Part shown: one piece after another, positions 1-60,192 of the stretch | Layout of the letters: every line of letters begins with the position of its first letter | How positions within the stretch are numbered: position 1 is the stretch's first letter | Assembly: GCA_963829055.1 (NCBI GenBank) | Contig: CAWHHI010000016.1 | Location: 992,001 to 1,056,000, forward strand | DNA length: 64,000 nucleotides | Direction of reading: 5' to 3' | From: an uncultured Gemmatimonadaceae bacterium | GTDB lineage: Bacteria > Gemmatimonadota > Gemmatimonadetes > Gemmatimonadales > Gemmatimonadaceae | The notes under the pieces: model-generated | What the model was told of the DNA's origin: nothing | What the model saw: the letters and a program-made list of their open reading frames with translations, nothing else | Database searches by the model: none | Translations under genes and position numbers: made by a program

Positions 1-1638
1 CCATCGCACCGATGCGTCGGCGTCGTCCCCCGGCCGCAGCGTCCGTCGTAGCGCGTCACCTGCGCTCTGCATGCGCCGCGCGATGCCGCGCAGCTCGTTC
101 AGCAGCGGCGCGACCGCTTCGGCGCGCGCCGCGTCGGTCTCGATCCGCTCGCGCACGACGCGGAGACCATCATGCAACAGCTCGACTTCGCCGAGGAGTT
201 CGGTGAGTGCGAGGTCGAGCCCACTGCGCCAGATGCGATGCTTCGCGAAATCCTCGGTGAGCCGCATGACGGGCAAGCCCGTCTCGTCCAACAGCGTTGT
301 GAGAAGATCGAACACGAGCCCGCTGCGGTCGCGCGCCGCGAGCACGGCCGGAGCGAGCTTCGTCCGCGCGAGATCGAGGCTCGCGATGCTGAGCAGGTCC
401 TTCCCCTCCGCGAGCCGCGCCATGAGGGCTGGGAGAATTCCCTTCCCCGTCCGATCGAGCCGAGCGAAGAGTCGCTGCAGCGAACGACGCGTGACCGTGG
501 CGCCGAGGTGCGCGGCAGCAGCGTCCTCGATGTGATGCCCTTCGTCGACGACGAGCCTCGCGTAGGCCGGCAGCACCGCCGCATCGTCCCAGTTCTGCGA
601 GACTCGGCGCACGGCCACGTCCGACATCAGCAGGTGGTGATTCACCACGATGACATCCGCCTGAGCGGCCTTCCGCCGCGCCGCGAACAGGAAGCAGCGC
701 TCGTAATGCGGGCAGCGCATCCGCGTGCACAGGTCGGGCTCGGCCGAGACCTCGTCCCACACCTCACCTCGCGGCGGCGCCGGCAGATCGCTCAGCGACC
801 CGTCGGTGGTACGCTCCGCCCACGCCGACAGCGTCGCGATCTCGTTGCCTAACGATTCCTCGAACAGCGCCGCGCCCGTCGACCGGGCCTGCTCGAGTCG
901 CATGAGGCAGAGGTAGTTGCGCCACCCTTTGAGCAGCGCAAACCGCACCGGCTGATCCGACAGCGCACGCGCGAGAAACGGCAGGTCCTTCCCGACGAGC
1001 TGCTCCTGGAGGTTGATCGTGTTCGTCGAGACGACCGTGCGCTCGCCGTTCGCCGCCGCCCACCGCAGCGCCGGGATCAGATAGCCGAGCGACTTTCCGA
1101 TGCCCGTGCCCGCCTCGAGCAGCCCGACGCCGCCGTCGTTGTACAGCTTCGCGATGGTTGCCGCGAGCTCGCGCTGCGCCGGTCGATCCTCGTACTTGGG
1201 CAGCAGTCGCGCGATGGGGCCGTGAGGACCGAGGTCAGCGTCGATGGCCGTGATGTCGAGCGGCGTATCGGGATCTTCCCGCGGCACCTCGACGACGACG
1301 TAGAGCTCGCGGGCGTCGTTGTCGATGATGCCGAACCCGATGCCGTCATCGTGCATGCGCGCGGCGACTTCGTAGTCGGCGCCGGAGGGTTCGAGCAGCC
1401 CTGACGGATGGTTGTGCACGAGCATCTCGCCGCGCTGCGCGAAGCCGGGCAGCGCGAGCACGCTCTGCACGTCGCCACGAGCGACGACACGCGCGGTGCG
1501 CACGATGGCGTCGTCATCGAGGGTGCAGACGAAGCACACTTCGCGTCCGCCGGCGAGCCGGATGGCGGCGCGCATGGCGGCAGCGGCGGACGACGCCAGG
1601 CGGGACTGACGCGGCTCGGAAACGGCGGTCGGGGGCAC
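1..1638 (-). CDS. DinG-family Fe-S helicase with N-terminal RadC-like JAB domain (runs off left edge)
   Basis: Manual translation (absent from the ORF track because it is truncated): GREVCF...MLVHNHPSGLLEPSGAD (JAB motif), Q-motif YEDRPAQ, Walker A EAGTGIGKS, STNTINLQEQL, NYLC...CTRMRCPHYERC, VVNHHLL, VVDEGHH. Start GTG 1638 or ATG 1575. Confidence 0.9.
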   Translation of the reverse strand, partial: MPPTAVSEPRQSRLASSAAAAMRAAIRLAGGREVCFVCTLDDDAIVRTARVVARGDVQSVLALPGFAQRGEMLVHNHPSGLLEPSGADYEVAARMHDDGIGFGIIDNDARELYVVVEVPREDPDTPLDITAIDADLGPHGPIARLLPKYEDRPAQRELAATIAKLYNDGGVGLLEAGTGIGKSLGYLIPALRWAAANGERTVVSTNTINLQEQLVGKDLPFLARALSDQPVRFALLKGWRNYLCLMRLEQARSTGAALFEESLGNEIATLSAWAERTTDGSLSDLPAPPRGEVWDEVSAEPDLCTRMRCPHYERCFLFAARRKAAQADVIVVNHHLLMSDVAVRRVSQNWDDAAVLPAYARLVVDEGHHIEDAAAAHLGATVTRRSLQRLFARLDRTGKGILPALMARLAEGKDLLSIASLDLARTKLAPAVLAARDRSGLVFDLLTTLLDETGLPVMRLTEDFAKHRIWRSGLDLALTELLGEVELLHDGLRVVRERIETDAARAEAVAPLLNELRGIARRMQSAGDALRRTLRPGDDADASVRW

Positions 1639-1674
1639 CCGGAAAACTTACAGCGCCGACGACGACCGCGACGA

Positions 1675-2997: not shown

Positions 2998-4694
2998 ATC
3001 GATGGAACGCTTTGCTTGGCCAAGTCGAGCTCGTGCCGGGCTTGCGGCACGAGCGCGCTTCGCGGATAGGTGAGAATCATGTGTTCGAGACGCTGAACCG
3101 CGGCCGCGGTGTCCCCGCGACGCCGCAGCACCCGCGCCCATTCCAGTTCCGCCTCCGCCGCTTCCGGGGCCGACGAATACTGCTCGCTGACCTGCTGCCA
3201 GATGCTGACCGCCGTACTGTCATCATGCCGCGCTGCAGCAATGCGGGCCGCCGCGTTGAGCATCAGCGCCGCAGCATCCGGAACCTTCGGGGCAGCGGCT
3301 TGGAGCTTGGTCGTCGCGCCAGCGCTGTCTCCACGCACGAGTGCCAGGAACGCACTCCCGACGTCCGGCGCGCTGTCGACCTTCGTGCGCGCCAGGAGCG
3401 CGAGCGCCAGGACGAGATCCGGCTCCGTCTCGCCGGCCCGCTTGAGGATTCGTCGAGCCGAACGCAGATCGCCCTCGTACAACGAGATCCACCCCATCGT
3501 GCGATCTTCTTCCTCGCCCATGGGCGTCGTGCCCATCGCGGCCCGCGCCTTCGCGAGATCACCCGCGCGTACCCATCCCCACGCCGCCATCCGCACGAGC
3601 CTAACGCGATCCAGCGAATCCAGGCGACTCGAGTTTGCGCTGATCAGCGCCTCCGCTTCGGCGGCGCGGCCGAGTGCGCTCAACGCGCGCACTCGGATGG
3701 GGAGGACCGATCGCACACTCGCGGAGTCGCTGGCGTCGGCATACGGTGCGAGTAACGCGACCGCCGACGCCGGATCGCCGCCACTCAACGCATCGTTCGC
3801 GGCACGCACCGCGAGCTCGCGCGTGGGCTTCCGCGCCAGCGCCGCCGCGAACGCATCGCGTGCGACCAGCCACGCGCCCGATCCCTCGGCTTCGTCGCCG
3901 AACTCCGTCCACGCCTTCAGGGCGTCTTCGCTCGGCGGCAGATCCTTGAGCGCAAGCCAGCCCTCGCGCGCCGAGCGCCAGCGCAGCTCGAGCAGCGCCA
4001 GCGCGCGCCGTGACGGAACCTCCACGGGAGCGGCACGGAATACCTGACGCACGGTAGCCCGCAGCGAGTCCGGCGTCGGGAATAGCGAGAACACCGCCGC
4101 CTGATCGAGATACGGCGATGTCGCCATTGCCTCACGCCAACTACGCGCGGATAACTCCCAGAGGCCGGTCGCGGCCCTGAGCTGCGCCATCTCGACCGTG
4201 ATGTCGCGTGTTCCGCCTAACGCCCGCTGAGCGCGCTGCAGCACCGTATCGGCGCTCGCCGACCGGCCATCGTCGAGCAGAAGCCGCGCGTACTCGCGGT
4301 ACGGTGCGGCGTCCCGAGGCGCGAGTTGCACCCATCGCTCGAACGCCGCCGCGGCAGCCGCGTCGCGATGCAGGTATGACAGCGTGCGGAGTTGTATCGT
4401 GCGCAGCATCGGTTCCTGCGGGTACTTCGCCAGCAGGGTGTCGAGCAGCGGCACGATGGAGTCTCGCTTGCCCAGCTGGTCGTACACGCGCTCGATGCCG
4501 AGAATCGATCCCGTGAGCGACCCATCGAGCGCGGCGCGGTACGCGGCGAGCGCTTCGCGCCACTTCCCCGCTTGCTCGAGCTCGAGCGCGCGCATCGGCA
4601 AGCCTGGTTGTGCCTGCGCCCGCGCCATTGCCGGCGCGAGCGCCATCACCCATGCGACCCTGAACGCGAACGCGGCGCTACGGCTTCTCCGCAT
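2994..4694 (-). CDS. Secreted tetratricopeptide-repeat protein
   Basis: Signal peptide, Ala-rich helical repeats, C-terminal BamD/YfiO-like 'LEHMILTYPRSALVPQAR'. Confidence 0.75.
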   Translation of the reverse strand: MRRSRSAAFAFRVAWVMALAPAMARAQAQPGLPMRALELEQAGKWREALAAYRAALDGSLTGSILGIERVYDQLGKRDSIVPLLDTLLAKYPQEPMLRTIQLRTLSYLHRDAAAAAAFERWVQLAPRDAAPYREYARLLLDDGRSASADTVLQRAQRALGGTRDITVEMAQLRAATGLWELSARSWREAMATSPYLDQAAVFSLFPTPDSLRATVRQVFRAAPVEVPSRRALALLELRWRSAREGWLALKDLPPSEDALKAWTEFGDEAEGSGAWLVARDAFAAALARKPTRELAVRAANDALSGGDPASAVALLAPYADASDSASVRSVLPIRVRALSALGRAAEAEALISANSSRLDSLDRVRLVRMAAWGWVRAGDLAKARAAMGTTPMGEEEDRTMGWISLYEGDLRSARRILKRAGETEPDLVLALALLARTKVDSAPDVGSAFLALVRGDSAGATTKLQAAAPKVPDAAALMLNAAARIAAARHDDSTAVSIWQQVSEQYSSAPEAAEAELEWARVLRRRGDTAAAVQRLEHMILTYPRSALVPQARHELDLAKQSVPSI

Positions 4695-7600
4695 TGATGC
4701 GCTTGAAGTAATCGAGCACGAGGCGCCGCTCCTCCGGCGTCAGCCCGCGGAGGTCGTTCCAGTTCGGCGGCGCGAACCGCGACGCGGCCTTGCCACTGGC
4801 TGACGCGTTAGGTGGCAGGAACAGCTCGTTCCCGGTCGCCGCCTTCGCCTCGCGTTTGCCGTTATCCTCGCGCTCGTCGCGTTCCAGCGTGCGACCGGCG
4901 TCGAGCATGCGGCGGAACAACCGCTGCTGCCGTTCGATCACGGTAGGATCGAGGCCGCCGCTCTCCAGTGCCTGCGCGAGCTGCCGCGCTTCCTTGGCCA
5001 ACTCCTCCGCGCGCCCGGTCCGGTCATTGTCGCTCATGTCATCGAGCGACGACGCGACGTCGCGCTGTTGCCGCCCGAGCTGACGCGCCTGCTCGCGGCC
5101 CTGTTGGTCCATCTGCGACCCTGGCCGCGGAATGAGCTGCGCCGTCTGCGAGTTCAGCGACCCTTGCTGCTGCGCCATGTCCTTGAGCTGCTCGAGCATT
5201 TCCGAGAATCCGGATGCGGAGTTCGCGTTCTTCGCGCGTTCCCGGTCGCGTACCAGGGTTGCCGCCGCCTGGTTCAGCGCTTCGGACGCGTCACGCATGG
5301 ACCCCGCCGCCTGCTCGCTCTGGCGCGCGTTCGCGAGATCACGCGTCGCCTGTTCGACCTTCTGCTGCGCGTCCCCCACCGACCGCTGTGCGCGCGGCGA
5401 GAACAGCGACGACTTCTGTCCCGCTTCACCGAGACGCTTGCCGGCCTGTTGCACGCCCTGCTGCAGCGCGCTCTGCTCCGCCTGCAGCGATGCCTTGTCA
5501 GCTCCCTGGCGCGCCTTCTGTTCGAGCTGCTCCTGCTGCCGCGAGAGCTGCAGCATTTCCTGGATCGACTGATCGAGCTCGCCGGTCAGCTCCTGCTTCC
5601 AGGCATCGATCTGCTTTTCTCGCGCGTCGGAGAGCTGGTCAGCCGCCCGCTGCATGGCATCCGCCGCGTCGTTCGCCGCCTTCTGCCCAGCGCTCTGTTG
5701 TTGTCCCTGCTGCTGCCCCTGCGCGCCCGGCTGCTGCCCTTGCTGCTGACCCTGACCGGGCTGCTGGCCCTGCTGTTGTCCCTGCTGACCAGGCTGTCCC
5801 TGTTGGCTCTGCTGACCCTGTTGGCCTTGCTGTCCTTCCTGTTTCTGCGCACCGGGCTGACTCTGCTCCTGCCCCTTCTGGCCCTGGGCACTCTTCTCCT
5901 GCGCGCTCTTTTCCTGCCCTTTCTCACCCTGCTGTCCGTTTTGCTGCTGGGCGTTCTGCTGCTGTTGTTGTTGCTGGCCAGCCTGCTGCTGACCAGCCTG
6001 CGGCTGGCCGTTCTGCGGCCTCTGCTCACCAGGTTGCTGCTGCTGGCGTTGCTGGTTCTGCTGCGACTCCGCGGACCGCTGCTCCTGTTGCTGCTGATCA
6101 CGCGCCGCGCGCTGCATGGCCTCGGCCGATTCCTTCACCTGCTGATTCGCGTCGTTGACGCCCTTCGCTCCCGGCTCCGCGTTCTCGCGCTGCAGCCGCT
6201 TCTGGAGCTCCTCGATCTGCTTCGCGAGATCGCGTGACCTGTCGGCGAGCTCGCGCGCGTCCTTCTGCGCTTCCTGCTTCTGCGCCGCCTCGCGCGCCTT
6301 CGCCATCGAATCCGCGTTCGCGCGCTCGTCCTTCGAGATGTCCTTCGCCTCTTCCTTCAGCGTTTGCATTGACCCTTCGAGCGCGGCGCGCTTCAACATC
6401 TCCACGCTCTTCTCGAGCTGCTCGCGGAGCTTCTGCTGCTGCTGCGCGAGGTCGCCCATGGCCTTCTGGGCATCCTCGGCCGACAGCTTCTGCGCCGATG
6501 CTTCCAGTTGGCGCAGCTTCTCCGCAAGCTCCGGCGTCAGTGCGTCGCGCAGGAGCTTCTGCGTTTCCTGCAGTCGCTGAGCTAGCGCGCTATCGAGCGC
6601 GCCCGTCTGCTTGAGCTGCTTCTCGAGCTGCTCCGCCGTCTTCTGCAGCTGCTGCATGCGCTCGGCGAGCTCGCGTTGCTCTTTCGCGAGCGCCTGCGCC
6701 TGCTGCGCCGACTCGTAGGACATCGAGTTCGTGCCCTTGGCCGAGCTGTTCTTGTCACCGGTCTTCGGCGTCGCGGGGCGCTGCCGTGCGCGCGCGGCTT
6801 CGGCGGTCCGCTGCTGCAGCGATTTCTGCGCGGCGGCGGCGGCCTGTGCACGTTGCACTGCGGAATCCGCGGCGGCACGCACGTTGGCGCGCGCCTCCGT
6901 CATGCCGGGAACGCGGAGCACCAGCTCGCGGCTCGACCCGCTCTGTCGCCACGGCGAGGCATCCACCGCGACCGCAACGATGTGCACAGCCTCGCCGGCC
7001 TCCACACCTAACGACGGCAGGGAGAGCGCCGCATCACCCGTCCACTGCGTAGTCGCCCGGGACACGAGCGTGCGACTCGTCTCCGGCAGCGCCGCTGCAC
7101 CCTCCGGCACGCGCCAGACGCGAAGCGCGACGCTGCCGATCCCGTGATCGTCGGTCGCGAGAAAGGACAGCGGAATCGTGTCGAGCGCCGAGACCGTGGT
7201 GTCCGTAGCCGGCGCGAGAATCTCGATCTTCGGCGCCGAGTCGGGGATGACTTCGAACTCGAGCGCGGCCGGCACGTCGGCGATAGGACCGCCGACACCG
7301 GCCGCATTCCACTCGTAGCGTCCGGTCTGGCTCACCGGCAGACGCCCAGTGAACGCGCGGCCGGTCGTCGTTAGGTGGAGTGTGTCCTTGCCGCGAGCGA
7401 GCGCGACACGCGTGAGCTCTGTCGACGAGTGTCCGGAGATGGCGAGGACGGTGCCACGCGGGAGTTGCGCCGCTTCGCCGACCGGCAGTGTCTCGTCACG
7501 TCGATCCAGGTACTTCGGGAATGTCGCCGTGATCGCAACGTCACCGATGAATGGGCGTTCGACCATCTCCAGCGCCGCGGTATCGCTCACCGTGCGACCA

Positions 7601-16784: not shown

Positions 16785-16799
16785 GTTTCCGGCGGTAGG

Positions 16800-16870: not shown

Positions 16871-16905
16871 TCGGCCCGCTCTTCCCTCGCCGACACTCAC
16901 CTCAC

Positions 16906-44187: not shown

Positions 44188-44672
44188 CATCGCCCAAGCA
44201 GCCGTTCGTACTCGCGATCGTAGCGCTCGCCGCGGCCATGGCCGCGGCGATGCCGTTTCAGCGCACCACCGTTCACACCAGCGTGCCGGCGCGACTTCGC
44301 GTCGCGAGCGACACCGGCCGCCCGGCGGTGACGCTGCTCTATCAGAATTTCCCGAACCCGTTTCCGACGGCCGATTCGCGCGTGACGTGCATCTGGTTCG
44401 ATCTCAATCGAACCACGTCGGTGAGTCTTACCGTGCACGACGTGCGTGGCAACCTCGTCCGACGCCTGCTGCCTAACGCATCGACGCCACAGTTCCTGGA
44501 GCCGGGGCGCTACGGGCGCGCGACGCCGACCGCCGAGGAAGGTTGCGATCCGATACTGACGTGGGATGGGCACGCAAACGATGGCTCCCTGGTTCCGCGA
44601 GGCGTCTACCTGATCCGGCTGCAAGCGGGTGGTGTGCAGTGGATCAAGAAGGCGGTCTTTCAAGGCCCGTGA
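44184..44672 (+). CDS. Small secreted FlgD-Ig / T9SS-CTD-like domain protein
   Basis: Signal peptide; [40 protein letters not shown]. Confidence 0.75.
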
Positions 44673-44682
44673 CGGGACCGCG

Positions 44683-46503: not shown

Positions 46504-46694
46504 ATAGACAGGGGACCGGGAACGGAGATCCGGGAACAGGAACTACAGCCGATTACTGGCTGGTCGTCGTGCCTGTGGCTGGGTGACGCTGGAGTGCTGC
46601 TTCACTGGCGCTCGAGGCGCGGCCGCTGGATGATGGCTGCGCTTTGATGGCTTCGTTCCTGCCTGTACCTGACTCGACCATGGAAAGGAGAGCA

Positions 46695-48244: not shown

Positions 48245-49842
48245 TCGCCGCGGCGCCCTTGTTGTGCAGCAACGCGCGCGAGCAGGTCCTTCTGGGTCTT
48301 CACACCGCGCGTCAACTCGACCGCGCGCTGCACGACCGGATCCTCCTGCACGGCACGGCGCCGTTCAGCCGCGACTCCCAGGACGTAGCGCGCGACGTCG
48401 TACCCGATGAAGCGCGACACGAGCGGCGCCGCCGCATCGTAGACGGAGCGATCCATCTCGATGCCGCGCTGCCGCATCCGCTGCCATACGCCATCGCGCA
48501 TCGCGTCCGTCACGACGAAGTCGGGAGACGTTACCGTGTTCGTGCCTTTGAGGCTCATCGCGTACTCGGTGATCGCGTCGCGGAACTGCGGGACCTTGCG
48601 GCCTAACGCGTTCTGAAGCGCCAGCTCGCTCGGTACGACGGTCGTGTCACCGGCGACGATGTCGGGCGTGATTCCACCACCGCCATAGACAATGCGTCCG
48701 CCGTCCGTCTTGAACTTCTCGCGTTCGGCCAACGGAGTGGTTTCGGGCCTGGCGTCGGAGTCATCGCTGTCCGCATCACCCTCGACCTTGTGCGGCTTGG
48801 AGATCGACCGGCCCGACGGTGTGAACCACTTCGCGGTCGTCAACTTGAGCGCGCTGCCGCCGGGTATCGGATACACCGTCTGTGCACTGCCCTTCCCGTA
48901 CGACGTGCGGCCAATGACGACTGCCCGATCGTGATCCTGCAGTGCGCCGGCGACGATCTCGGATGCCGACGCCGAGTACTCATCGACGAGCACGACGATC
49001 GGCAGGTTGGGCCACTGCTGCGAGTATCCGTCCACGAACTCGTGGTTCGCTTCCCGCACTCGGCCCCGCATGTTCACGATCTCCTGTCCCCGGTCGAGGA
49101 ACAGGTCGGATACGCCGACGCCCTGCGTCAGCAAGCCACCCGGATTCGCGCGAAGGTCGAGCACGAGCGATCGCATCCCCGCCTTCGACAGCGAGTCGAT
49201 GGCGTGCGACAACTCCTTTTCGGTCGAGTCGCTGAAGACGTCGAGGTCGACGAAGCCGACGCCGTCGGACAGCAGCAGCGAACGGCCAACCGCGCTGCGG
49301 TGGATCTCCTGCCTAACGAGCGACACCGGGCGGCGCGCACCGGCACGGTCCATCACGACCTGAACCGCCGTGCCCGGAACGCCACGTAGCGCCTTGCTTG
49401 CTTCGGCGATCGTCCAGCCCTTGGCCGATTTTCCTTCGACCTCGACGATGCGATCCCCGGTCTCGACGCCGGCGCGCTCGGCAGGAGACCCGGCGAGCGG
49501 CGATACGACGATCACCCAGCCGTCGCGGACGTCAATCTGAATGCCGACGCCGCCGTAGTTACCGGTCGTGCTCTCGTTGAGCCGAGCGAGCCGGTCGGCG
49601 CGCAGGAAGACGGAGTGCGGATCGTGGAGCCCGTCGAGCATGCCGTCGATGGCCTTTCCGTACAGATCCGACGTGCTCACCGAGTCCACGTAGTAGCGCT
49701 CGATGTGCGTCATGACCTCGTCGAAGAGGCGCGGTCCGGAAACGCTGGAGCCGCCACCGCTGAGGCCGCGTTCGAAGAACCACCCGCCCGTGACGAGCGC
49801 GGTGCTGAGAACCCCTAAGACGACGAACGCGCGAGAGCGCAT
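48241..49842 (-). CDS. S41 carboxyl-terminal processing peptidase
   Basis: DPHS, PDZ GGVGI, DLRANPGG, SASASEIVAGALQD, GKGS.Q, GGITPD. Confidence 0.95.
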   Translation of the reverse strand: MRSRAFVVLGVLSTALVTGGWFFERGLSGGGSSVSGPRLFDEVMTHIERYYVDSVSTSDLYGKAIDGMLDGLHDPHSVFLRADRLARLNESTTGNYGGVGIQIDVRDGWVIVVSPLAGSPAERAGVETGDRIVEVEGKSAKGWTIAEASKALRGVPGTAVQVVMDRAGARRPVSLVRQEIHRSAVGRSLLLSDGVGFVDLDVFSDSTEKELSHAIDSLSKAGMRSLVLDLRANPGGLLTQGVGVSDLFLDRGQEIVNMRGRVREANHEFVDGYSQQWPNLPIVVLVDEYSASASEIVAGALQDHDRAVVIGRTSYGKGSAQTVYPIPGGSALKLTTAKWFTPSGRSISKPHKVEGDADSDDSDARPETTPLAEREKFKTDGGRIVYGGGGITPDIVAGDTTVVPSELALQNALGRKVPQFRDAITEYAMSLKGTNTVTSPDFVVTDAMRDGVWQRMRQRGIEMDRSVYDAAAPLVSRFIGYDVARYVLGVAAERRRAVQEDPVVQRAVELTRGVKTQKDLLARVAAQQGRRGE

Positions 49843-49872
49843 GGTACCCCCCGAGATTGAACTACGGCCGAA

Positions 49873-50553
49873 TCAGGGATGAGACCCGACTGCCGGCCGG
49901 AATGTTTCAGGCCACCGTTGCTCGAGTACGGTGATCACGGCCGACGCGACATCGTCGATGGAACCCGCTCCATCGATCGCGATGACCGGACCCGACTCTG
50001 GGTGACTGCGTTGCCATGCACGATCAGTGAACCGCTCGAAGGCTGCGGCGACCCTGTGGTGAAAGTCATCGTCGGCGGCTTCGATCCGATCCCTCGATCC
50101 GCGACTGTCGGTCCTCGCCAGTGCCGAGGCGACGGGTAGCTGCAGAAGTATCGTAAGATCGGGCACGAGCCCGCCAGTCGCAAACCGGTTCGCGGCCGTG
50201 ACCTCGGTATCCGGGAGGCCCCGACCCTCGATCTGGTATGCATAGGTCGACAGGAAGAATCGGTCCGCGACGACCACGAGGCCCTGGTCGAGCGCTGGCC
50301 GAACGTCCTTTTCGATCAATTCCGCACGCGACGCCATGAACAGGAGCGCTTCAGTCCGAGGCGACAACTCGGGGCCAGGCTCGAGGAGAATGTGTCGAAT
50401 CTGGTTCCCGACGGCCGTTCCCCCAGGCTCGCGAACGCCGAGAAATCGGATCCCGCGCGCGGTGAGCGTCTCGCCGAGCCGCCGGATCTGGGTCGTTTTG
50501 CCGACCCCTTCCGCGCCCTCGAATACGATCAGCTTACCGCGCGGCGGCGTCAT
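49873..50553 (-). CDS. tmk: Thymidylate kinase
   Basis: FEGAEGVGKTTQ, REPGGT, DRFFLSTYAYQ, PDLT. Confidence 0.95.
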   Translation of the reverse strand: MTPPRGKLIVFEGAEGVGKTTQIRRLGETLTARGIRFLGVREPGGTAVGNQIRHILLEPGPELSPRTEALLFMASRAELIEKDVRPALDQGLVVVADRFFLSTYAYQIEGRGLPDTEVTAANRFATGGLVPDLTILLQLPVASALARTDSRGSRDRIEAADDDFHHRVAAAFERFTDRAWQRSHPESGPVIAIDGAGSIDDVASAVITVLEQRWPETFRPAVGSHP

Positions 50554-50903
50554 CCGAGCGTGATGATCGAGCTCGTCGCGCCCTTTCGAATGCCCTCGGT
50601 GATCCAGTTGTTCACCTGGAGCATCGTCTTGTCGAAGTTTTCCTGCGCGGAAATCGCGCGCTGGTAGTTCGGATTCACCTGCACCTTACCGAGCAGATCG
50701 TCGAGCTGCTGCTCCATGTCGGCGGTGGGGTTCTCGCCGCGTTCGATCATGCGCTGCGCCTCGTCGCGAAGCTGATCCATCTTCCGGAGCAGGGCGACGG
50801 CGTCGCGATCGTTGTTGAGAGCGTCATTCGCGCGTTTGACCGCCTGGTACTCGGAGCTCTGTCCAATGAGCCGACCAAGCTCACGCGCTTTTTCGTCGAG
50901 CAT
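50550..50903 (-). CDS. YlbF/YmcA-family regulator
   Basis: DEKARELGRLIGQSSEYQ...QVNPNYQRAISAQENFDKTMLQVNNWI helical pattern. Confidence 0.8.
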   Translation of the reverse strand: MLDEKARELGRLIGQSSEYQAVKRANDALNNDRDAVALLRKMDQLRDEAQRMIERGENPTADMEQQLDDLLGKVQVNPNYQRAISAQENFDKTMLQVNNWITEGIRKGATSSIITLG

Positions 50904-50987
50904 GAGAAGTGGGTTGAGGTACGAAACGAATTGTAATTGACGGAACGAACAAAGTTGCTCAGTTGAAACGGCGCCAACAGCGAAAGG

Positions 50988-51141
50988 GCGCGAAATCCCA
51001 AGAGGCGCGAAATGCCGAACAGCGCCAGATGCCGAACAGCGCCGAGATGCCGAACAGCGCGGAATGCCAGACGGCGCGAAATCCCGAAATGCGCGAAATC
51101 CCAAAGTGCGCGAAATCCCAAAGTGCGCGAAGTCCCGAACG
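50988..51141. repeat. Tandem array of nine ~17-bp units, consensus GCGCGAAAT(C/G)CC(G/A)AANN
   Basis: Units read directly starting at 50988, 51005, 51022, 51039, 51057, 51074, 51091, 51108 and 51125. Confidence 0.9.
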
Positions 51142-51148
51142 GCGCGCC

Positions 51149-51197
51149 AACGGCGGACGACGAACGGCGGACGACGAACGGCGGACGACAAACGGCG
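51149..51197. repeat. 3.5 copies of 14-bp AACGGCGGACGAC(G/A)
   Basis: Read directly. Confidence 0.9.
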
Positions 51198-51246
51198 AGT
51201 AGCGAGCGGAGCCGAAAGCAGGAGGCGCCAGCCGCGACGGTCGCGG

Positions 51247-52123
51247 TCAGCGCCGCCGAGCGAGAACGAAGCGCTCGCGCCCCGTGAGATCCAGATGAAC
51301 GGCGACGTCGGCGTACGCGCCGTCCGTCGCGACGGCTTCGGCGACGAGCGAGGCACGCCGCGTGTCGACCTCGAAGGCAAGGAGGCCTCCCGACTCGAGG
51401 ACCGAGCGCGCTTCATGAATGATCTGACGAGTCGCGGCCAGGCCTTGATCGGCGCTCAGGAGCGCGAGAGGTGGTTCCCAGTCGCGCACCGATGCCGGGA
51501 GCTCCTCCAGCTCGGCAAACGCGATGTACGGCGGGTTGGACACCACCACGCGCGCCCGTACATCGCGGACCGGAGCCAGGAGCGAGCCGTGAAAGAACTC
51601 CACGGGCACGCCGAGGTCATCGCGAAGGAACGCCGCGTTGCTCTCGGCCACCGCGAGCGCGTCGCGCGAGACGTCGGTGGCAATCGACGCGGTCGAACGT
51701 GCCTTCTGTCGCGAGCGCGAGCGCGATGGCCCCAGACCCTGTGCCGACGTCGATGACCGTGCCGCGTCCACCGCGCTCTGCCCCGAGTACGAGGTCCACG
51801 AGAATCTCGGTCTCCTGCCGCGGAATGAGCACGCGTTCGTCGACCGCAAGCGTTAGGTAGCGGAACGCCGCTCGACCAACGGCGTAGGCGAACGGCGCGC
51901 CGCGGCTGCGGGCCGCCGCGGCCCTGCGGGCCTCGTCAACAGCCGTCGCGTCGACCAAGGCGTCGCGATTCGCGGTCGGCCAGAAACGCGGGAGGTCGAG
52001 CACCGCGGCAACGATGTCACGGGCCTCATCACGCGGCGTAGGGACGCCGGCCGATTCGAGCTCCGCGGACAACTCGTTGACCAGCGCGCCTAACGATGCC
52101 GGGGCGGCGGCGTCAGCCCTCAC
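51247..52123 (-). CDS. prmC: Release factor glutamine methyltransferase (indel near 51690)
   Basis: [47 protein letters not shown]. Confidence 0.95.
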
Positions 52124-53180
52124 CGAAATTCTCCTCATCGACGGCCTCCTGCAACGCCTCCACGATGCGTCCAATGTCGCCGTCGAGAATACGCTGCAGA
52201 TCGTGCACCGTGAGGTTGATCCGGTGGTCCGTGACGCGCCCCTGCGGGTAGTTGTACGTGCGGATCTTCCCCGAGCGATCGCCGGTGCCGACCTGCGTCT
52301 TTCGCATACGGGACCGCGCCGCTTCCTGCTCGGCGAGTCTCGCATCGAGAAGACGAGCGCGCAGCACTTCCATCGCCTTCGCCTTGTTCTGGATCTGCGA
52401 GCGCTGGTCCTGCTGCGAGACGACGATGCCGCTCGGGATGTGCGTGATGCGCACCGCTGAGTCGGTCGTGTTCACGCCCTGCCCGCCAGGGCCAGATGCG
52501 CGGAACACATCGATGCGCAGATCCTTGTCGTCGATACTGACGTCGACTTCCTCGGCTTCCGGAAGCACGGCGACGGTCGCCGCCGACGTGTGGATGCGTC
52601 CCTGCGCTTCGGTGGCGGGAACACGTTGCACGCGGTGCGTGCCCGATTCCCAGCGGAGCGCGCCGAACGCGCCGTCACCAGTGACCTTGAACACCGCTTC
52701 CTTGAGCCCGCCTAACGTGCCCTCGGAGTACTGCATCGGCGTCCACTTCCAGCCGCGCCGTTCGAGGAAGCGCGTGTACATGCGAAACAGGTCGGCGGCG
52801 AACAGGGCGGCCTCGTCGCCGCCCGTCCCCGGACGAATTTCGACGATCGCGGGCCGATCGTTGAGCGGGTCCGGGGGGATGAGGAGCGGCTTGAGCTGGC
52901 GCTCTACCTCGGCGATCGCCAGCTCGGCCCGCTCGACTTCGGCGCGCGCCTCAGCGGCCATCTCAGCGTCGTCAACGACAACGAGCTCGCGCGCCTGCGC
53001 GAGCTCGTCATCGAGTTTTTCCAAGCGCTTAGCCAGCGCGACGACGTCCGTGAGTCGTTGGTGCTCACGGCCGAGTGATGCGAGCAGCCGTGCATCACGG
53101 ACCGTTTTTGGATCGAGCAGCTCACGTTCGACGTCCGCCGCGCGCACGAGCGCGTCGGCGAGCCGATCGCGGATGCTCAG
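52113..53180 (-). CDS. prfA: Peptide chain release factor 1 (start uncertain: CTG 53180 or GTG 53147)
   Basis: [23 protein letters not shown] (PxT), [16 protein letters not shown]. Confidence 0.95.
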
Positions 53181-53383
53181 GAGGTCGTCTTCCCGTACTT
53201 CTGGCGGAAGCGCTCAACGCGCCCAGCGGTATCGATCAACTTCTGCTTGCCGGTGAAGAACGGGTGGCAGACGTTGCAGATGTCCGTATGGATCTCCGCG
53301 ATGGTGGAGCGCGTCTGGAACGTGTTGCCGCAGGCGCACTTCACGGTGGCGGTCGCGTACTCGGGATGGATATCGGTTTTCAT
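53177..53383 (-). CDS. rpmE: 50S ribosomal protein L31 (Zn-binding form)
   Basis: [29 protein letters not shown]. Confidence 0.97.
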
Positions 53384-53648
53384 GATCGAGCCCTCAGTAG
53401 CTTTGAAAGATAGCCAACAAATATATTCGGTCTCAGCCGCAAAAGACAAGGCGACAATGACTTGCCGCCCGACCGCGGCGTCAGTCCAGTCGCCGATGTA
53501 ATGGCGAGGGGGGCTGGGCGCGTGAGGCCGCGTCGCATTTATTCGTGACGCGGCGCCGCTGTCGGCGTCCATCCAGCGAATGCCAACTCGGTACGCGACT
53601 GCCGTTCGGGCGGCGCCGACGGGTCCTCTTCTCGGAGCAATCTCACTG

Positions 53649-54323
53649 ATGGAGATATCCAACTTCCTGCGGACAGTTCCGCTCTTCACCAAGCTCGACG
53701 ACGCGGAGCTACAGCGCTTTGCGGAGCTGACTCGCGAGAAGAACTATCCGAAGGGCAGCGTCATTCTGTTCGAGGACGATCCGGGAGATTCCCTGTTCAT
53801 TGTCCGCGACGGACGGGTCAAGGTCGTACTCGTCGGGGAGGACGGACGCGAGGTGATCCTCGGCGTCCTCGGACCGGGCGAACACTTCGGCGAGCTCTCG
53901 TTGATCGACGAGCAGCCGCGCTCGGCACACGTGATCGCGATGGAAGACACCAACGTACTCGTCCTCCGCAGCGACGACTTCCGTCGCCGGGTCGAGGCGA
54001 ATCCGGCGGTGGCCTGGGTGCTCATGCAGGAACTGTCGCGGCGACTTCGTCGAGCGGACGGCAAGATCCACGGACTGGCGTTGCTCGACGTGCCGGGGCG
54101 GATCGCGCGCCTGCTGCTCGACTTCGCGTCCGACGACAACGGCGACAAGATCGAGAAGCCGCTGACGCACCAGACGATCGCGCACATGATCGGGGCGAGC
54201 CGTGAGACTGTGTCGCGCACGATGCGAGACTTCCAGAACCAGGGCTGGATCAATGTCGAGCGCCGTCGCATTGCGCTCGCCGATCGGACGGCGTTGAAGC
54301 GCTGCGCGCAGGCACGCGTGTAG
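53649..54323 (+). CDS. Crp/Fnr family transcriptional regulator
   Basis: VPLF, FGELSL..PRSA (cNMP-binding cassette), [18 protein letters not shown] (HTH). Confidence 0.93.
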
Positions 54324-54328
54324 CGACG

Positions 54329-54428
54329 GGGAAGAGGGACTGGGGAATGGGGACTCGGCGCTCCTTGTCGGCGAGAGCGCCTACCTCGGTGCCGTATTTC
54401 CCAGTCTCCTGTCCCTAGTCCCACTCCC
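54329..54428. repeat. Inverted pair of G-tract heptamer repeats
   Basis: GGGAAGA GGGACTG GGGAATG GGGACTC (54329-56) and degenerate complementary copies at 54396-54428. Confidence 0.8.
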
Positions 54429-54435
54429 GGTTCAG

Positions 54436-55320
54436 ATGTCCTTTCGCCTCCGCTTCTGGGGCACACGCGGATCCATTCCGAGCCCCGGCCCGGCGACGGT
54501 CCGTTACGGCGGAAACACGCCGTCGATCGAAGTCCGGACGCCGAGCGGATCGCTTGTGCTGCTCGATGCGGGCACCGGGATTCGGGAGCTTGGTCGCGCC
54601 CTGATCGCGCGCGCGAACGGCGCACCGATCACTGGCGACATTTACCTGACGCACGCCCACTGGGATCACATCCAGGGCTTCCCCTTCTTCGCGCCGGCCT
54701 TTCAGCGCGGGAACCGGTTCACGATCTGGGGAACGAAATCTCTCGCCGCGAGCATTCGCCGCGTCGTCCGCGATCAGATGTCGCCAGTCGTGTTCCCCGT
54801 CGCGTTCGAAGAGCTGGCGGCGACGTTCGATTTTCGCGAGCTGATCGATGAGCAGCACGTGTCGGACGGGTTCGATGTGCGTGCCTTCTCGGTCCGCCAT
54901 CCCGGCGGCGCGTTAGGCTACCGGTTCACATCGCGTAACGCCGACAACACCGACGACGGGTCTGCGTTCGTGTACATCTCCGACAACGAGCTGCGCGACA
55001 GAGACGCGTCACCGAGCGCGGACCGCTGGCGCTCGAAGCTGGTGGAGTTCATCCGCGGTGCGCGTGTGCTCATTCACGACGCGACATACACCGAGGACGA
55101 GTACGAGACACACCGTGGTTGGGGGCACTCGACGTACGGTGACGCCGTGGCGCTCGCGCTCGAGTGCGGCGTCGAAACGCTGGTCCTGTTCCACCACAGC
55201 CCTGACCGCAGCGACGACGAGCTGGATGCACGCCTTACAGAGTGCCGCGCCGCGTGCGCCCAGTCCGGCCGGACGCTGCGCATCATCGCGGCGGCCGAAG
55301 GGATGGAGCTGGACGTCTAA
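54436..55320 (+). CDS. MBL-fold metallo-hydrolase (phosphodiesterase-like)
   Basis: FWGTRGSIP, YGGNT, DAGTG, THAHWDHIQG, HPGG, GWGHS, FHHSP. Confidence 0.9.
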   Translation: MSFRLRFWGTRGSIPSPGPATVRYGGNTPSIEVRTPSGSLVLLDAGTGIRELGRALIARANGAPITGDIYLTHAHWDHIQGFPFFAPAFQRGNRFTIWGTKSLAASIRRVVRDQMSPVVFPVAFEELAATFDFRELIDEQHVSDGFDVRAFSVRHPGGALGYRFTSRNADNTDDGSAFVYISDNELRDRDASPSADRWRSKLVEFIRGARVLIHDATYTEDEYETHRGWGHSTYGDAVALALECGVETLVLFHHSPDRSDDELDARLTECRAACAQSGRTLRIIAAAEGMELDV

Positions 55321-55340
55321 CTCGCACGACCGTGTGGTCG

Positions 55341-56880
55341 TTAGGCTCCCCAGCCTCCGCCACCGGGTGTCATGATGGTGATCACGTCACCCGCCTGCAA
55401 CTGGAGCCGGCATTTGGCCGGAATCAGCGCGCCCGTTCAACTGATTGACCCCAGGCAACCCCGGCGACCCGCCCGCCGCGCCCTGCGGCGCGTGGCGCCT
55501 TCGCTCCGTCAATAACGTGACCGTGCAGGGCTCGAGGACGCGGTAGCGACGCACGATCCCATCGCCGCCGCGGTGCGCGCCGGCACCGCCGGAGTCGCGG
55601 CGGATCGCGTACTCGTCAACGCGAATGGGATACGCATGCTCGAGCGCTTCGATCGGCGTGTTGCGGGTGTTGCTCATGCCCACGTGGACGGCGCTCGGAC
55701 CCGGGCCGCGTGGGCCGCCGCCCTGACCGCCGCCCAGCGTTTCGTAGAACGTCCAGCCGGAACCGCCGAACGTGATGTTGTTCATCGTTCCCTGCCCTTG
55801 CGCGGGCACGGGAACCGCCGCTGCGCCTAACGCAGCGAAGATGGTGTCGGTGATGCGCTGCGACATCTCGACGTTCCCCGCGGCAACGGCGGACGGCCAG
55901 CGGGCGTCGATGGCGCAACCCGGCGGGATGACGAGATCCAGCGCGTCGGCGATGCCGTCGTTCGTGGGGACATCGTCATCGAGCAGCGTGCGCAGCACGA
56001 ACACACTCGCCGCACGCGTCACCGAGCGCGGACAGTTCACGTTGCCGCGGACTGCAGGCGAGGTTCCTGTGAAGTCGAGACGGAGCTTGCCATCGCGCAC
56101 CGAGACGGCGACCGAGACGCCAATGTCGTCGTCGGTCACACCGTCGCCTTCCAGCGCGTCGCGGGCGACGCCGTGAATGTCGCCCAACTCCGCCACGCGC
56201 GCCAACGCACGACGACGCGTGTACTCGAGCAGCGCGTCGCACGCGGCGCCCAGGTGGTCGGCGCCCTCGCGCGTCCGAAGTGCGATCCAGCCGTCTCGGC
56301 CCGCCGCACACGCCGCGCGTTGCGCCGCGAGATCACCGCGCCGCTCGTCGGGCGTACGAACGTTCGCCAGCACCAGGCGCATCACGTCGTCGACGGCAAC
56401 GCCACGTCGCTCGATGCGAACCGGCGGCACGATGATGCCTTCCTGAAACAGCTCGGTCGCGCCCTGCGGCATGCTGCCGGGACTCAAACCACCGACGTCC
56501 GCGTGGTGCGCCCGCACGGCGGCGAAGGCAACGACCTCGCCATCGACGCCGATGGCCTCGACCATCGTGAGGTCAGGCAGGTGCGAGCCGCCAGCGTATG
56601 GATCGTTGAGCAGGAACACGTCGCCCGACTCAGGCGAGCGAGCCATCACGGCGCGCACGGACTCAGGCATGGCGCCGAGGTGCACCGGAATGTGCGCGGC
56701 CTGGGCGATCATTCGTCCGCGCGCGTCGAACAGTGCTGACGATGCGTCGCGACGCTCGCGAATGTTCGGCGAGAGCGCACCTCGCTCGAGCACCGCGCCC
56801 ATCTCCTCGGCGATCATGGACACCGCATGGGAGACGACCATGAGCGCGAGCGGATCGAACCCTGCGCGTTCGTTGCTCAT
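55341..56880 (-). CDS. Hydantoinase B / 5-oxoprolinase subunit (indel near 55425)
   Basis: SPNIRERRD, HIPVHLG, NDPYAGGSHLPD, HHADVGG, NTPIE; true C-terminus GDVITIMTPGGGGWGA* lies in another frame. Confidence 0.92.
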
Positions 56881-58848
56881 GGCGCGCGCTCCATCACCCA
56901 ACCGCCGGTCGGCAACGACCGCGCCTGCCATCCACTGGCGACGAGAAGCGTGGCATCTGGCAAACCAATGGTAGAGCGCCCACGCACGACGACGTCGATC
57001 ACGCCACCGTCATCGCGCGAATCAGGGCCCCACACCGCCGTGCCTCGCCGGCCGAGCCTAACGTCATGCATGCCGGTGGACGCGGTGCATCGCGCACTCA
57101 CAACCTCGACGGGCCGGTCGAGCGTGAAACCGTAGCGTTCCCGATGCCGCTCGGCGAACGTCTCACCTACGGACGCTGGACGCGCGTCAGGCGCGAACGG
57201 GACGTCCAGCTCGTGGCCCTGTCCGACGTAGCGAGCGCGCACGACCCAGTTGAGCACGACGCCGTTGTCGCTCGGTCCGTGCTGTACACCCGAGGCCCGC
57301 GCCGCGAGCGTTGTCGCGAGCGCGCGGACATCCGCATCGCTCATATCGGCGATGCGACGCATGACGCTCGTCGCCGACGTCCGCCGGCTCGGCGCGATCG
57401 CGAGCCCGAGCGCGCTCAACACGCCCGCGTGAGGCGGGACGATCACACGCCGGATGTCGAGACGATCCGCGAGGCCGCAGGCGTGGAGCGGGCCGCCACC
57501 ACCGAACGCGATGAGCGCGCAGTGCCGTGGGTCGATGCCGCGCTCGACGCTCACGCGCCGCAGCGCGCGCGCCATGGACGCGTCGGCAATCGCGATGATG
57601 GCATCGGCGGTCGCCGCGCGGGTCGCGCCAATGCGCCCGGCGAGCGCATCGATGGCCGCGATGGCGCCGGTGACGTCGAGCTCCACGCCGTCGCTCATGA
57701 CCGTCGCCGCAATGTTACCGAGCGCGATGTGCGCGTCGGTGACGGTGGGTTGCGTTCCTCCGCGTCGAAACGCGACCGGCCCTGGACGGGCGCCGGCGCT
57801 TCTCGGACCTACGCGGAGCGCACCGCCATCGTCGACCCACGCGAGGCTACCGCCACCCGCGGACACCGTCTCGACCAGCACGCGTGGGAGCGCGATGGGA
57901 ACGCCGGCGACCGATCCACCGACCTCGAGCAACGGCTCGCCGTGCAGGACGAGTCCGACGTCGGCGCTCGTGCCGCCGATATCGATCGTGAGCGCCTGGT
58001 CGATGCCTAACGTCCGCGCGATGTACGCGGCACCGGTCACGCCGCCGGCCGGCCCTGAGAGCGCGAGCGACGCGCCACTCGACGCGGCCTCCGCGGCTGG
58101 TGCGGTACCGCCGCTGGACGACATCACGCTCGGCGCCGGAAACCCCGCGGCCTCGAGCCGAGTCGCGAGGTGGGCGACGTAGCGACCGACGCCCGGGCGC
58201 ACGTAGGCCTCGCAGACGGTGGTGGCGGTGCGCTCATATTCACGGATCTCGGGCAGGACGTCGGACGAGCAGACGACGTCGCACGTGAGCGATCGCGCCG
58301 CGAGCACGTCCGCGAGCGCGGACGCGACCATACGTTCGTGCAGTGGATTCGCGTACGCGTGCAGCAGCGAGACGGCCACGACATCGGGCGAAAGCTCGGC
58401 GACACGCGTCCGCGACGTCCCTGGCCACCGCTTCCGTGAGCGGGAGCAGCACGCCCTCGGGTGCAATGCGTTCGGCGACGCCGACGACGCGATCGGGCGG
58501 CACGAGCGACGGCGGGTGGTGGACGGAAAGGTCGTACAGACCCGCACGCTCCTGTCGGCGGAGCTCGAGCAGGTCGGTGGCGCCGGCCGTCGCGCACAAC
58601 ACCACACGCGCGCCGGTGCGTTCCAGCAGCATGTTCGTGACGACCGTCGTGCCGTGTACGATCCGCGATACTCGCGGTGCGTCGCCGGGAAGAGCGCGCA
58701 GCGCCGTATCTACCGCTTCGCTCTGATCGCCCGGCGTGCTCGAGACTTTGTACGCGATGACCGAACCGTCGTCAGCGATCGCGACGAGGTCGGTGAATGT
58801 GCCACCGACGTCGACACCCAGGGATAGTCCGCCGGACTGTTCGGTCAC
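56877..58848 (-). CDS. Hydantoinase A / 5-oxoprolinase subunit (indel near 58400)
   Basis: GVDVGGTFTD, HGTT, EIREYER, SGPAGG, DIGGTS, GPRSAGA, PTVTDA, FGGGGPLH. Confidence 0.92.
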
Positions 58849-60192
58849 GCGGCTGATCGCGATACGACCCGTCGCGATGCGGTGCTGCGTCGCGGCGCGC
58901 CCGCGCGCTGCGCCGTCAGCTCGGCGACGGCCCATGCGAGCACCAGATTCGCCGGCAACGCCAGTGCGATCACGGCGCCGTTCTCCTGATTGAACCACGG
59001 CAGCAGCTGCATCGCCAGACCAAGCAGCGACACGACGGCGATCACTCGGGTCAGCGTTAGGGCCGCGCCAACAGCGCGGCCGCGAGCGATCGCGAGCGGC
59101 AGCACCACCGCCAGGATCAACGACAGCGGATCGAACTGCAGGATGTTCTCGTTGTGGCCGATGAAGATGTGACGGGTCGCGGTCCACGCGATGACGAGTG
59201 CCACACCAAGAATGCCACTGATCGCAGCCCATATCGTGGCGATGGTCGTGAACGCGATTCTCGCCACGCGCCTGCCGGCGAGCGCGGCGCGCGCGAGCAA
59301 CGCGAGCAGCGCGGCAATCACGGCACCTATGACGAGATTGCGGACCATCTGGTCCGGCGGGCTCGCTGGCAGTGCGGGCCGCTGCGCGGCAAACAACTGC
59401 TGCTCGTTCCTGACGAGCGGATGCGTGGTGCCGTCCGCGGATTTCACCTGCAGCGAGCGAACCTGCTCCTGGAGCTGCTCGGGCAGAAACGCTGTTTCCC
59501 ACGCACTGATCGGTCGATCCGCGAGCTCGCCCAGCGCGACGTTCGTCGCGAGCCCAACGACGCCTTCCGGCGCCAGCGCTCGCTGGGTGTGGAAGCGGTA
59601 CGTCGTATTCGTTAGGCGGGCCGTCAACGCGGTCTTGAGCTGCCCCCCCACGGCGCGGTCGATGATGTCACGCACGCGCGTCGAGCAGTTGTCGAGGTAG
59701 TAGTCGTACCGGTAGTAGCGGTGCTCGGGTTGCGCGTTCCAGGCGATGAAGTCGCGCACGGCGGCACGCTCGGCCGGCGTGAAGTCGAGCTCCTGCACCC
59801 ACATCGAGCGGTTGTAATAGCGATAGGCGGCGACCGTCTCCGCCATCCCGTCACTCTGCAACCAGTACTCGGTGTTCCCCGTCATGAACCGGCCAATGAA
59901 GTTCGGCTGCGCGAAGTCGAACGTCCCCCAGTTGTACACGCTGTCGGTGCCGCGTGAGGCATCGACGATGCGAATCGCGTTATGCCCGAACCGTTCCCAC
60001 ACTGGATCGCCGGGACCCATGGTCATGAGATAGATGGTCAGTTCGGAACCTGGGGGCTGGGGACTGGGGACTGGGGGCTGGGGAGCTGGCCGCCCCCCGC
60101 CGTTCGGTTCCCGGTTCCCGGTTCCCTGTTCCCTGCGCTTGCGCCCCCAGCGCGCTCGCGAGAAACGAAGCGAGTAGTACAACAGACTTCAA
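58845..60192 (-). CDS. DUF4105 (Lnb-like lipoprotein N-acyltransferase) membrane protein; frame break near or within internal heptamer repeats
   Basis: FGHNAI, YNWGTFDF, YRYDYYLDNCSTR, FLP, C-terminal TM helices; signal peptide MKSVVLLA... is in another frame. Confidence 0.85.
60051..60135. repeat. Intragenic inverted heptamer repeats
   Basis: On the minus strand, GGGAAC(A/C) x4 followed by about 5 CCCCAG(T/C)-like units. Confidence 0.85.

Follow-up and report, generated by a model that had tools for sequence, protein, structure and literature searches.

Why does one seven-letter word recur again and again, on both strands, along a stretch of bacterial chromosome? The question is raised by a window, the whole stretch of 64,000 nt analyzed here (G000:C16:992001-1056000), from an uncultured bacterium of the family Gemmatimonadaceae. 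The word is CCTAACG, read as CGTTAGG on the forward strand where a copy lies on the minus strand. Throughout, a G-number denotes a genome, a C-number a contig and a g-number a genus. The source assembly, G000, comprises 7,784,024 bases in 20 contigs with 66.7% guanine plus cytosine (GC); its completeness is put at 86% and its contamination at 4%. A preliminary description of the window had listed 47 copies of the heptamer, counted by eye, and had proposed it as a DNA signal. An exact-word search found every one of these and gave exactly 47 copies, 28 on the plus strand and 19 on the minus strand, compared with 2.75 on average and 7 at the most in 100 dinucleotide-preserving shuffles of the window, none of which reached 47. 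The analysis that follows demonstrates a strong bias, blind to frame and to strand, toward one exact duplex word, with a short-range limit and inheritance by clade. We tentatively propose that this word, in its full form the octamer GCCTAACG, is a clade-specific self tag that is read by a protein and kept by a fixation bias at the DNA level, most like the DNA uptake sequences of other bacteria.

Unit, abundance and arrangement of the word

The whole of G000 contains 6,391 copies of the heptamer (0.82/kb), 3,154 forward and 3,237 reverse. Density lies between 0.64 and 1.09/kb on each contig, and none is without the word. Base composition (order 0) predicts 891 copies, an order-2 Markov model 249 and an order-3 model 720; the observed number is 25.7 times the order-2 expectation, and the heptamer ranks first among all 7-mers of the genome under both the order-2 and the order-3 model. 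Markov models of orders 4 and 5 absorb the word, since they are trained on it. The 21 one-mismatch variants of the heptamer occur at 0.04 to 2.0 times the level given by base composition, many of them depleted and none enriched like the word itself. Most CTAA and TTAG tetramers had been said to sit in this context, and 6,391 of the 8,933 in G000 (72%) do fall inside it.

The base immediately 5' of CCTAACG is most often G (78% of copies), less often A (13%), C (7%) or T (2%). The unit is therefore the 8-mer GCCTAACG, its first G sometimes replaced by A; the earlier claim for a heptamer stands as regards abundance and falls short as regards length. There are 5,004 copies of this octamer in G000, compared with 373 of a control, the same word reversed. 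Weaker flank preferences extend from -2 to +9 around the heptamer, with no conservation farther out. GCCTAACG is asymmetric, in that it differs from its own reverse complement, and each copy therefore has an orientation.

That orientation shows no polarity, as the preliminary description had supposed in setting the word apart from Chi and KOPS. In 50 kb bins of positive GC skew we counted 1,172 forward and 1,260 reverse copies, and in bins of negative skew 1,771 and 1,750. Gene orientation in G000 follows GC skew (rho 0.47); word orientation does not. Adjacent copies fall into the four possible arrangements of forward (F) and reverse (R) in similar numbers (FF 1,605, RR 1,688, FR 1,539, RF 1,539), with no local runs of the same orientation. 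Strand equality is general: the forward share of the word is 0.47-0.53 in all 42 genomes that we class below as rich. Confinement of the copies to the plus strand in G165, G179 and G065 was considered and excluded, since sampled DNA of these genomes carries the word on both strands (23/27, 30/18 and 17/23).

Copies avoid each other within about 250 bp, in either orientation. Gaps of less than 50 bp between copies number 65, compared with 260 expected from an exponential distribution, regardless of orientation; gap counts reach parity near 250-300 bp and are in excess at 300-1,000 bp. Inverted pairs at the distance typical of integron attC sites show no excess in G000, where FR pairs at 150 bp or less make up 54 of 1,539, the same as RF.

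At the other extreme, the longest copy-free gap (G000:C6:5440-55038) spans 49.6 kb at 69.9% GC with 0 copies, and its CTAA and TTAG tetramers occur at 0.22/kb, compared with 1.15/kb genome-wide. It encodes FtsK, chorismate synthase (aroC, in two frames), DAHP synthase, leucyl aminopeptidase (pepA) and others, and second copies of its housekeeping genes lie elsewhere in G000 at 47-64% identity. Few of its ORFs (open reading frames) fit the codon model of the genome, and some of its genes are split. The stretch is probably foreign DNA, through a chimeric join, contamination of the bin or a large transfer. The wider idea that copy-free gaps are mobile DNA was not borne out beyond it: a gap at C4:804932-820718 holds ordinary metabolic genes and one at C16:450462-461723 gene fragments, both free of mobile-element marks.

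A bias on the DNA and its inheritance

The preliminary description had argued that selection acts on the DNA rather than on the encoded protein. We examined a gene set of 4,688 long ORFs of G000 picked by a codon model, which are crude calls covering 66% of the genome. The set contains 3,740 heptamers, almost equally divided between sense (1,821) and antisense (1,919). When synonymous codons were shuffled within each gene (20 shuffles), the count was 315 +/- 18, giving an 11.9-fold enrichment over this codon-preserving null in addition to that over the Markov nulls. Density is 0.72/kb inside called genes and 1.02/kb elsewhere, and copies are fairly evenly distributed along gene length.

All four stop-free frames are used: nCG TTA GGn (1,424 copies), CCT AAC Gnn (1,090), nnC CTA ACG (731) and nnC GTT AGG (495). 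The word is carried by 61% of the 1,790 possible Pro-Asn-G sites, 29% of the 4,958 [A/T/S/P]-Leu-Gly sites, 8.5% of the 8,581 x-Leu-Thr sites and 4.2% of the 11,806 x-Val-Arg sites. Measured against codon usage outside the word, the odds are raised 23-, 92-, 17- and 27-fold, respectively. More than half of all TTA codons in these genes (1,424/2,632, 54%) lie inside the word, as do 199 of 613 TAA and 152 of 1,259 TAG stop codons. The proline codon before AAC-G is CCT in 66% of cases, compared with a baseline of 7.9%, and the other proline codons are depleted there (CCG 0.26 vs 0.59, CCC 0.057 vs 0.22, CCA 0.021 vs 0.11). Because all synonymous neighbors are depleted, the bias draws each of them toward the word rather than following one mutational path. 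Protein sequence is bent too, since the Pro-Asn dipeptide is 1.38 times commoner in G000 than residue frequencies predict. These data support the conclusion that the force acts on DNA rather than protein and that the word is written against codon habits.

The word is kept in place as well as accumulated. We aligned window 38001-58000, a small sample of 20 kb, to relatives. In three genomes of the same genus (78.5% DNA identity), 11/17, 11/15 and 11/17 copies were intact (65-73%), compared with 20% of all 7-mers; in two rich genomes of other genera, 3/10 and 2/7 copies were intact, compared with 14% and 12% of 7-mers. Copies are thus kept at orthologous places about three times better than other 7-mers in the same-genus alignments. 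Where an orthologous copy has been lost or gained, the two sequences differ by one to four letters. In sum, regardless of frame, changes creating the word have reached fixation far more often than changes destroying it. With such a fixation bias the word has therefore accumulated to about one per kilobase and then been held in place.

How widely is the trait shared? The SMC protein encoded in the window matched 78 loci, nearly all titled Gemmatimonadaceae, Gemmatimonas or Gemmatimonadota, which bears out the phylum assumed in the preliminary description. Among 31 genomes, G000 and its 30 nearest relatives, all seven of the window's genus have 3,403-6,707 heptamer copies, and G014, of a different genus, has 9,004; the remaining genomes mostly have 10-230, below the control word. 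For 201 Gemmatimonadaceae genomes from 77 genera, we then took the GCCTAACG-to-control ratio as the basis of classes. The tallies of the 201 include four unpublished genomes (G013, G051, G052 and G150), and those of the 31 include G013 as well; they are used in tallies only, and no conclusion depends on them. Forty-two genomes are rich (ratio at least 5), 22 moderate (2-5), 15 neutral (0.5-2) and 122 depleted (below 0.5). The rich class is reached in 16 genera, 40 genera are depleted throughout and some are mixed. In genus g56, for example, three genomes have 3,479-4,141 copies and G124 has 66, and genus g23 ranges from 173 to 1,991. Mean genome size is 5.1 Mb in the rich class and 3.9 Mb in the depleted class of the 201, uncorrected for relatedness.

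Among the rich genomes sampled, the word itself hardly changes. A sample of G014 (139 kb, 62.5% GC) has 1.79 copies/kb with flank preferences like those of G000, and samples of G165 (63.7% GC) and G179 (74.6% GC) have the same top word; in G179, G precedes the heptamer in 48/48 copies and G follows GCCTAAC in 48/63. The rich genera g1, g9, g55 and g80 share an identical word, with slight shifts at most at the two end positions. Among the poor genomes, 100 kb samples of G008, G017 and G047 and a 67 kb sample of G124 showed no substitute word above about 2- to 6-fold. Genomes thus differ in whether, and how strongly, they carry one word rather than in dialect. A FastTree phylogeny was built from 60 SMC rows; 19 of the 78 loci, which had no ORF of at least 1,000 aa showing the Walker A pattern, were left out. 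Two neighboring clades contain the 14 rows at 0.15 copies/kb or more, which require 3 changes, compared with 12.8 in label shuffles, of which 0/500 were as low; in this tree, as in the genome tallies, related genomes are not independent of one another. The word may have had a single origin followed by losses.

Candidate readers and competing explanations

From this pattern we infer that a sequence-specific protein reader exists and that it reads double-stranded DNA in either orientation. By analogy, the source of the bias would most likely be that behind the DNA uptake sequences (DUS) of Neisseriaceae and the uptake signal sequences (USS) of Pasteurellaceae. Like these, the word is short and non-palindromic, occurs about once per kilobase, equally on both strands, and runs through genes at a cost in codons and residues. 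It also resembles them in being conserved in place, missing from foreign DNA, limited to a clade and spaced at about the length of short recombination tracts. For DUS, Treangen et al. (2008; PMC2397512) describe a spacing that corresponds to how large conversion fragments are, and a conservation of DUS together with their absence from recently acquired genes. Under such a mechanism, fragments carrying GCCTAACG would be taken up and recombined preferentially, and molecular drive, or selection favoring exchange with kin, would spread the word. The spread would stop once a second copy on the same short fragment added nothing, which would leave an exclusion zone of about 250 bp.

An uptake sequence was one of the possibilities raised in the preliminary description, and the anatomy of the word (density, strand symmetry, even spacing, conservation, clade limitation) would fit it best of those possibilities; the competence genes, equally present in word-poor relatives, do not discriminate. 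The uptake machinery encoded in G000 comprises ComEC, type IV pilins and a PilQ-like secretin, with a weak match to HHH_3 (ComEA-type). Several observations weigh against an uptake tag. Competence genes are found in rich and poor genomes alike (ComEC 5/5, PilQ-like secretin 167/201, HHH_3 188/201, pilin N-termini 5/5), and therefore their presence carries no weight either way. No ComP-type receptor was identified, the one pilin candidate examined being non-discriminating, and no account of natural competence in the phylum emerged from the searchable literature. Whereas DUS and USS form dialects that differ from one related genus to the next, g1, g9, g55 and g80 have the same word, and the four poor genomes sampled offer no substitute. 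One-mismatch variants are not enriched, and the word, at 8 letters compared with 9-12, is shorter than the USS core or the DUS. It differs from both also in belonging to another phylum and in lacking close inverted pairs in terminators. Finally, its identity with one end of the attC site, described below, points to another possible reader.

Two sets of candidate markers were rejected. The pilin candidate (locus L087:2580-3095) matches relatives over the N-terminal helix only, in rich and poor genomes alike, and does not discriminate between them; ComEC, HHH_3 and the PilQ-like secretin are nearly ubiquitous and fail as phyletic markers. To our knowledge, iterated self words with a shown role in transformation are confined to Neisseriaceae and Pasteurellaceae. 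PMC1939737 is in line with this, and PMC13756078 now proposes a transformation role for the cyanobacterial word HIP1 (highly iterated palindrome 1; GCGATCGC). According to the latter source, HIP1 is, like the present word, an octamer that is hyper-abundant at the level of a clade, conserved in coding and non-coding DNA and regularly spaced; its function was likewise long unknown, and a connection of HIP1 with transformation and with genes of the type IV pilus has now been made. In that source, two methylases recognize HIP1, and its enhancement of transformation depends on methylation. HIP1 is palindromic, whereas the Gemmatimonadaceae word is asymmetric and has no tracking methyltransferase among the families searched, and here the PilQ-like secretin occurs in rich and poor genomes alike. 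In the searchable literature, from which subscription journals are excluded, we found no paper on the word, in agreement with the earlier description of it as undescribed, and nothing that joins Gemmatimon* with a DNA uptake sequence.

The attC sites of integrons have the core GTTRRRY and the inverse core RYYYAAC. In the word-poor genome G021, each of the 30 word copies on three stretches stands at the start of an attC-like element (90-135 nt), which runs from GCCTAACGG through a conserved inner repeat to GTTAGGC. GTTRRRY lies 85-131 nt downstream of the word in 29/30 of these copies, and one array abuts a partial intI. The cassette arrays of G021 (L178, which is G021:C95:1-13500, L179 and L180) carry homogeneous attC sites every 500-800 bp on one strand. 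G000 has an intI gene of its own (C20:208041-208958, minus strand; 265.7 bits, just above the cut-off), and three or four attC-like sites beside it begin with GCCTAACG or ACCTAACG. In the surrounding integron (C20:198000-218500), attC-like sites lie at about 205100-207300 on the 3' side of intI, with same-strand runs of the word on both sides. As judged from these elements, the word corresponds in 8/8 letters to the R'' end of the predicted attC sites in the family's own integrons. In G000, inverted attC-like boxes at a distance of 50-140 nt and with hairpin potential are limited to the few copies beside intI, however numerous the word is elsewhere. The genome-wide copies are lone boxes rather than attC sites, as the lack of an inverted-pair excess indicates, nor do they follow the distribution of IntI: the integrase scores above its curated cut-off in 18/31 relatives, many of them word-poor. 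Where attC sites are inverted pairs that form hairpins, stand in cassette arrays and depend on IntI, these copies stand singly in ordinary genes. We regard it as improbable that the word is an uptake or self tag tied to integrons, with a reader that recognizes the attC R-box duplex. In that case, uptake or recombination machinery tuned to capture cassettes might have driven the cassette end into the genes of the bacterium itself; alternatively, a reader taken over from integrons might now mark the whole chromosome. If true, this would make the word the first tag of uptake type outside Proteobacteria and would for the first time connect such a tag with integron recombination sites.

Other readers were also considered. 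The preliminary description had named a nucleoid or SMC-related site among its possibilities. It is possible, though rather doubtful, that an abundant chromosomal protein binds the word inside the cell, whether nucleoid-associated, a chromosome organizer or a self-marking factor, for which about one site per kilobase would be selected, each bound protein covering or serving about 250 bp and so making close neighbors useless. Strand symmetry, the orientation-independent exclusion zone, orthologous conservation and clade limitation would fit this equally, and one unchanged word over many genera suits a housekeeping reader better than a fast-changing uptake receptor; a structural role has also been proposed for HIP1 from its quasi-periodic spacing (Xu et al. 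2018, as cited in PMC13756078). No candidate protein was found, however, and the lack of both the word and a substitute in whole genera, and in G124 within g56, is odd for an essential organizer. We know of no bacterial nucleoid protein that requires exact 8-mers in the thousands, placed against codon usage. That the integron integrase, or a tyrosine recombinase related to it, reads the GCCTAACG/CGTTAGGC duplex as attC R box is unlikely; the copies would then be landing sites, decoys or by-products of integron recombination. This reading draws on the G021 and G000 elements just described, and a random heptamer fits the core consensus in about 0.2% of cases. It has to contend with IntI in many word-poor genomes (G007-G009, G011, G012, G016, G019, G020, G026, G028 and G029) and with an IntI not found or broken in word-rich G002, G004 and G014, although all three are fragmented assemblies in which absence is uncertain. 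Moreover, the genome-wide copies are single boxes with no flank conservation beyond -2 to +9, and they lie in frame inside conserved genes with no insertions. No mechanism is known to us by which a recombinase multiplies its own half-site.

Methylation, which the preliminary description had suggested as a driver, fares worse. That the word is the target of a DNA methyltransferase, accumulating through methylation-linked repair or through methylation-dependent transformation as proposed for HIP1, is decidedly improbable, in spite of the HIP1 precedent and of a protein of about 1,100 aa with an Eco57I-type domain that is conserved in rich and poor genomes of the family. Eco57I-type enzymes read asymmetric words. 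In G000 this protein lies in four frame pieces (C8:73608-76749) and in word-poor G124 it is intact; the only D12-class gene of G000 (C8:134573-135776) is split between two frames. These frameshifts could be assembly indel errors, and G000 has either very little DNA methylation capacity or such errors. None of the five Pfam families of DNA methyltransferase searched tracks the word, others not having been searched for. PF01555, PF02384 and PF00145 have no proper match in the rich genomes G000 (86% complete, with possible indel errors), G066 and G188, whereas the poor genomes G124 and G033 have several; PF01555 occurs in 14/42 rich and 61/122 depleted genomes, and PF02086 (D12-class) in G066, G124 and G033 and not in G188 or G014. 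Three strong methyltransferase candidates from a pattern pre-screen of G000 proved to be RNA methyltransferases (RlmL- and RsmD-type) and a protein kinase. Repair of the very-short-patch type would, in addition, convert one neighbor, whereas all synonymous neighbors are depleted. A Chi-like signal for a helicase-nuclease, or one like KOPS (FtsK-orienting polar sequences) for a DNA translocase, is very unlikely. The word shares with Chi and with KOPS/SRS (SpoIIIE recognition sequences) that it is a short, over-represented chromosomal word, here lineage-specific and of Chi-like length, and those words are read by a DNA-processing motor. Yet they are strand-polarized with replication, whereas the present word has neither polarity with GC skew, which genes do follow, nor same-orientation runs. 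RecC was not found in the 5/5 genomes searched, and the avoidance of close copies is unexpected for a probabilistic Chi. Enrichment against codon usage is far stronger than is known for Chi sites. That the word is an artefact of base calling or of assembly, or that it results passively from codon, amino-acid or mutation bias, has next to no probability. Several frameshifted genes in G000 do point to an imperfect consensus, but the word is rich in 42/201 separately listed assemblies, and loci on contigs with names of the megahit or SPAdes type contain it. Window 39001-49000 is spanned, at up to 99% identity, by contigs from four runs belonging to four studies, and among 40 listed of the 348 contig differences there, none falls in its ten copies. 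The encoded residues fit conserved proteins, as with Pro-Asn in the SMC ORF, which the preliminary description had assigned to the Walker A motif, and codon-preserving shuffles fall far below the observed count, against a passive bias.

Copies in the window and the meaning of the word

The copies in the window are all exact matches. Plus-strand copies lie at 848-854, 2974-2980, 3600-3606, 4216-4222, 7007-7013, 16137-16143, 19377-19383, 21221-21227, 30367-30373, 30903-30909, 31103-31109, 32109-32115, 35004-35010, 36682-36688 and 58006-58012, and minus-strand copies at 4806-4812, 7369-7375, 14347-14353, 21667-21673, 22378-22384, 22938-22944, 23484-23490, 27496-27502, 30495-30501, 37596-37602, 59055-59061 and 59610-59616. 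The reading frames that had been claimed for four further copies agree with the ORFs there: nnC CTA ACG at 16992-16998 (plus) in ORF 16756-17937, nnC GTT AGG at 18420-18426 (minus) in ORF 18403-20154, and, in the SMC ORF (40660-44187), CCT AAC G (Pro-Asn) at 40753-40759 (plus) and nCG TTA GGn at 41648-41654 (minus). A TAA stop that had been placed at 55341 was not recovered. The copy in question (55339-55345, minus) sits between two convergent ORFs, and no ORF of at least 80 aa stops inside it.

In the aligned part (38001-58000), the relatives compared were G001, G002 and G005 of the same genus and G066 and G014 of other genera. Kept in all three same-genus genomes are the plus-strand copies at 40047-40053, 44472-44478, 47286-47292, 48060-48066 and 49312-49318 and the minus-strand copies at 41648-41654, 43526-43532 and 45297-45303. 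Three more are kept there and beyond the genus: 52089-52095 (plus) also in G066, 52711-52717 (plus) also in G066 and G014, and 54911-54917 (minus) also in G014. The Pro-Asn copy at 40753-40759 is kept in G066 and reads CCGAACG or CCGAATG in the same genus. The copy at 48602-48608 (plus) is CCGAGCG, and that at 51851-51857 (minus) CGTGAGG, in G001, G002 and G005. The copy at 39869-39875 (plus) is not kept in G005 and G001, G002 being unaligned here; that at 55826-55832 (plus) is not kept in the aligned relatives, and that at 57057-57063 (plus) is not kept in the same genus and reads CCTAACA in G066.

Other features were seen in the same part of the window. Window 50990-51200 is an intergenic patch of short tandem-like repeats, of whose units GCGCGAAATCCC and GGCGGACGACGAAC are examples, and dozens of same-genus contigs have patches like it, 70-130 bp long and 75-88% identical. 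About 33 bp at 54327-54359 have 91-96% matches on several contigs of G001, G002 and G005, and no tRNA was found there. On many contigs in each of the five relatives searched, window 48654-49003 has paralogue-like matches (68-69%), as a widely conserved domain would, and 48687-49000 shows a high depth of metagenome contigs.

A word of DUS- or USS-like strength in a clade of the Gemmatimonadaceae implies a sequence-specific DNA reader that has reshaped thousands of codons, and even residues, in abundant soil bacteria with little genetics. The word could serve as bait in a pull-down, as a test of natural transformation and so a route to genetic tools in the phylum, and as a marker that separates native from foreign or mis-binned DNA in metagenome bins. 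The rich, weak and word-less relatives form a natural series in which the reader may be found.

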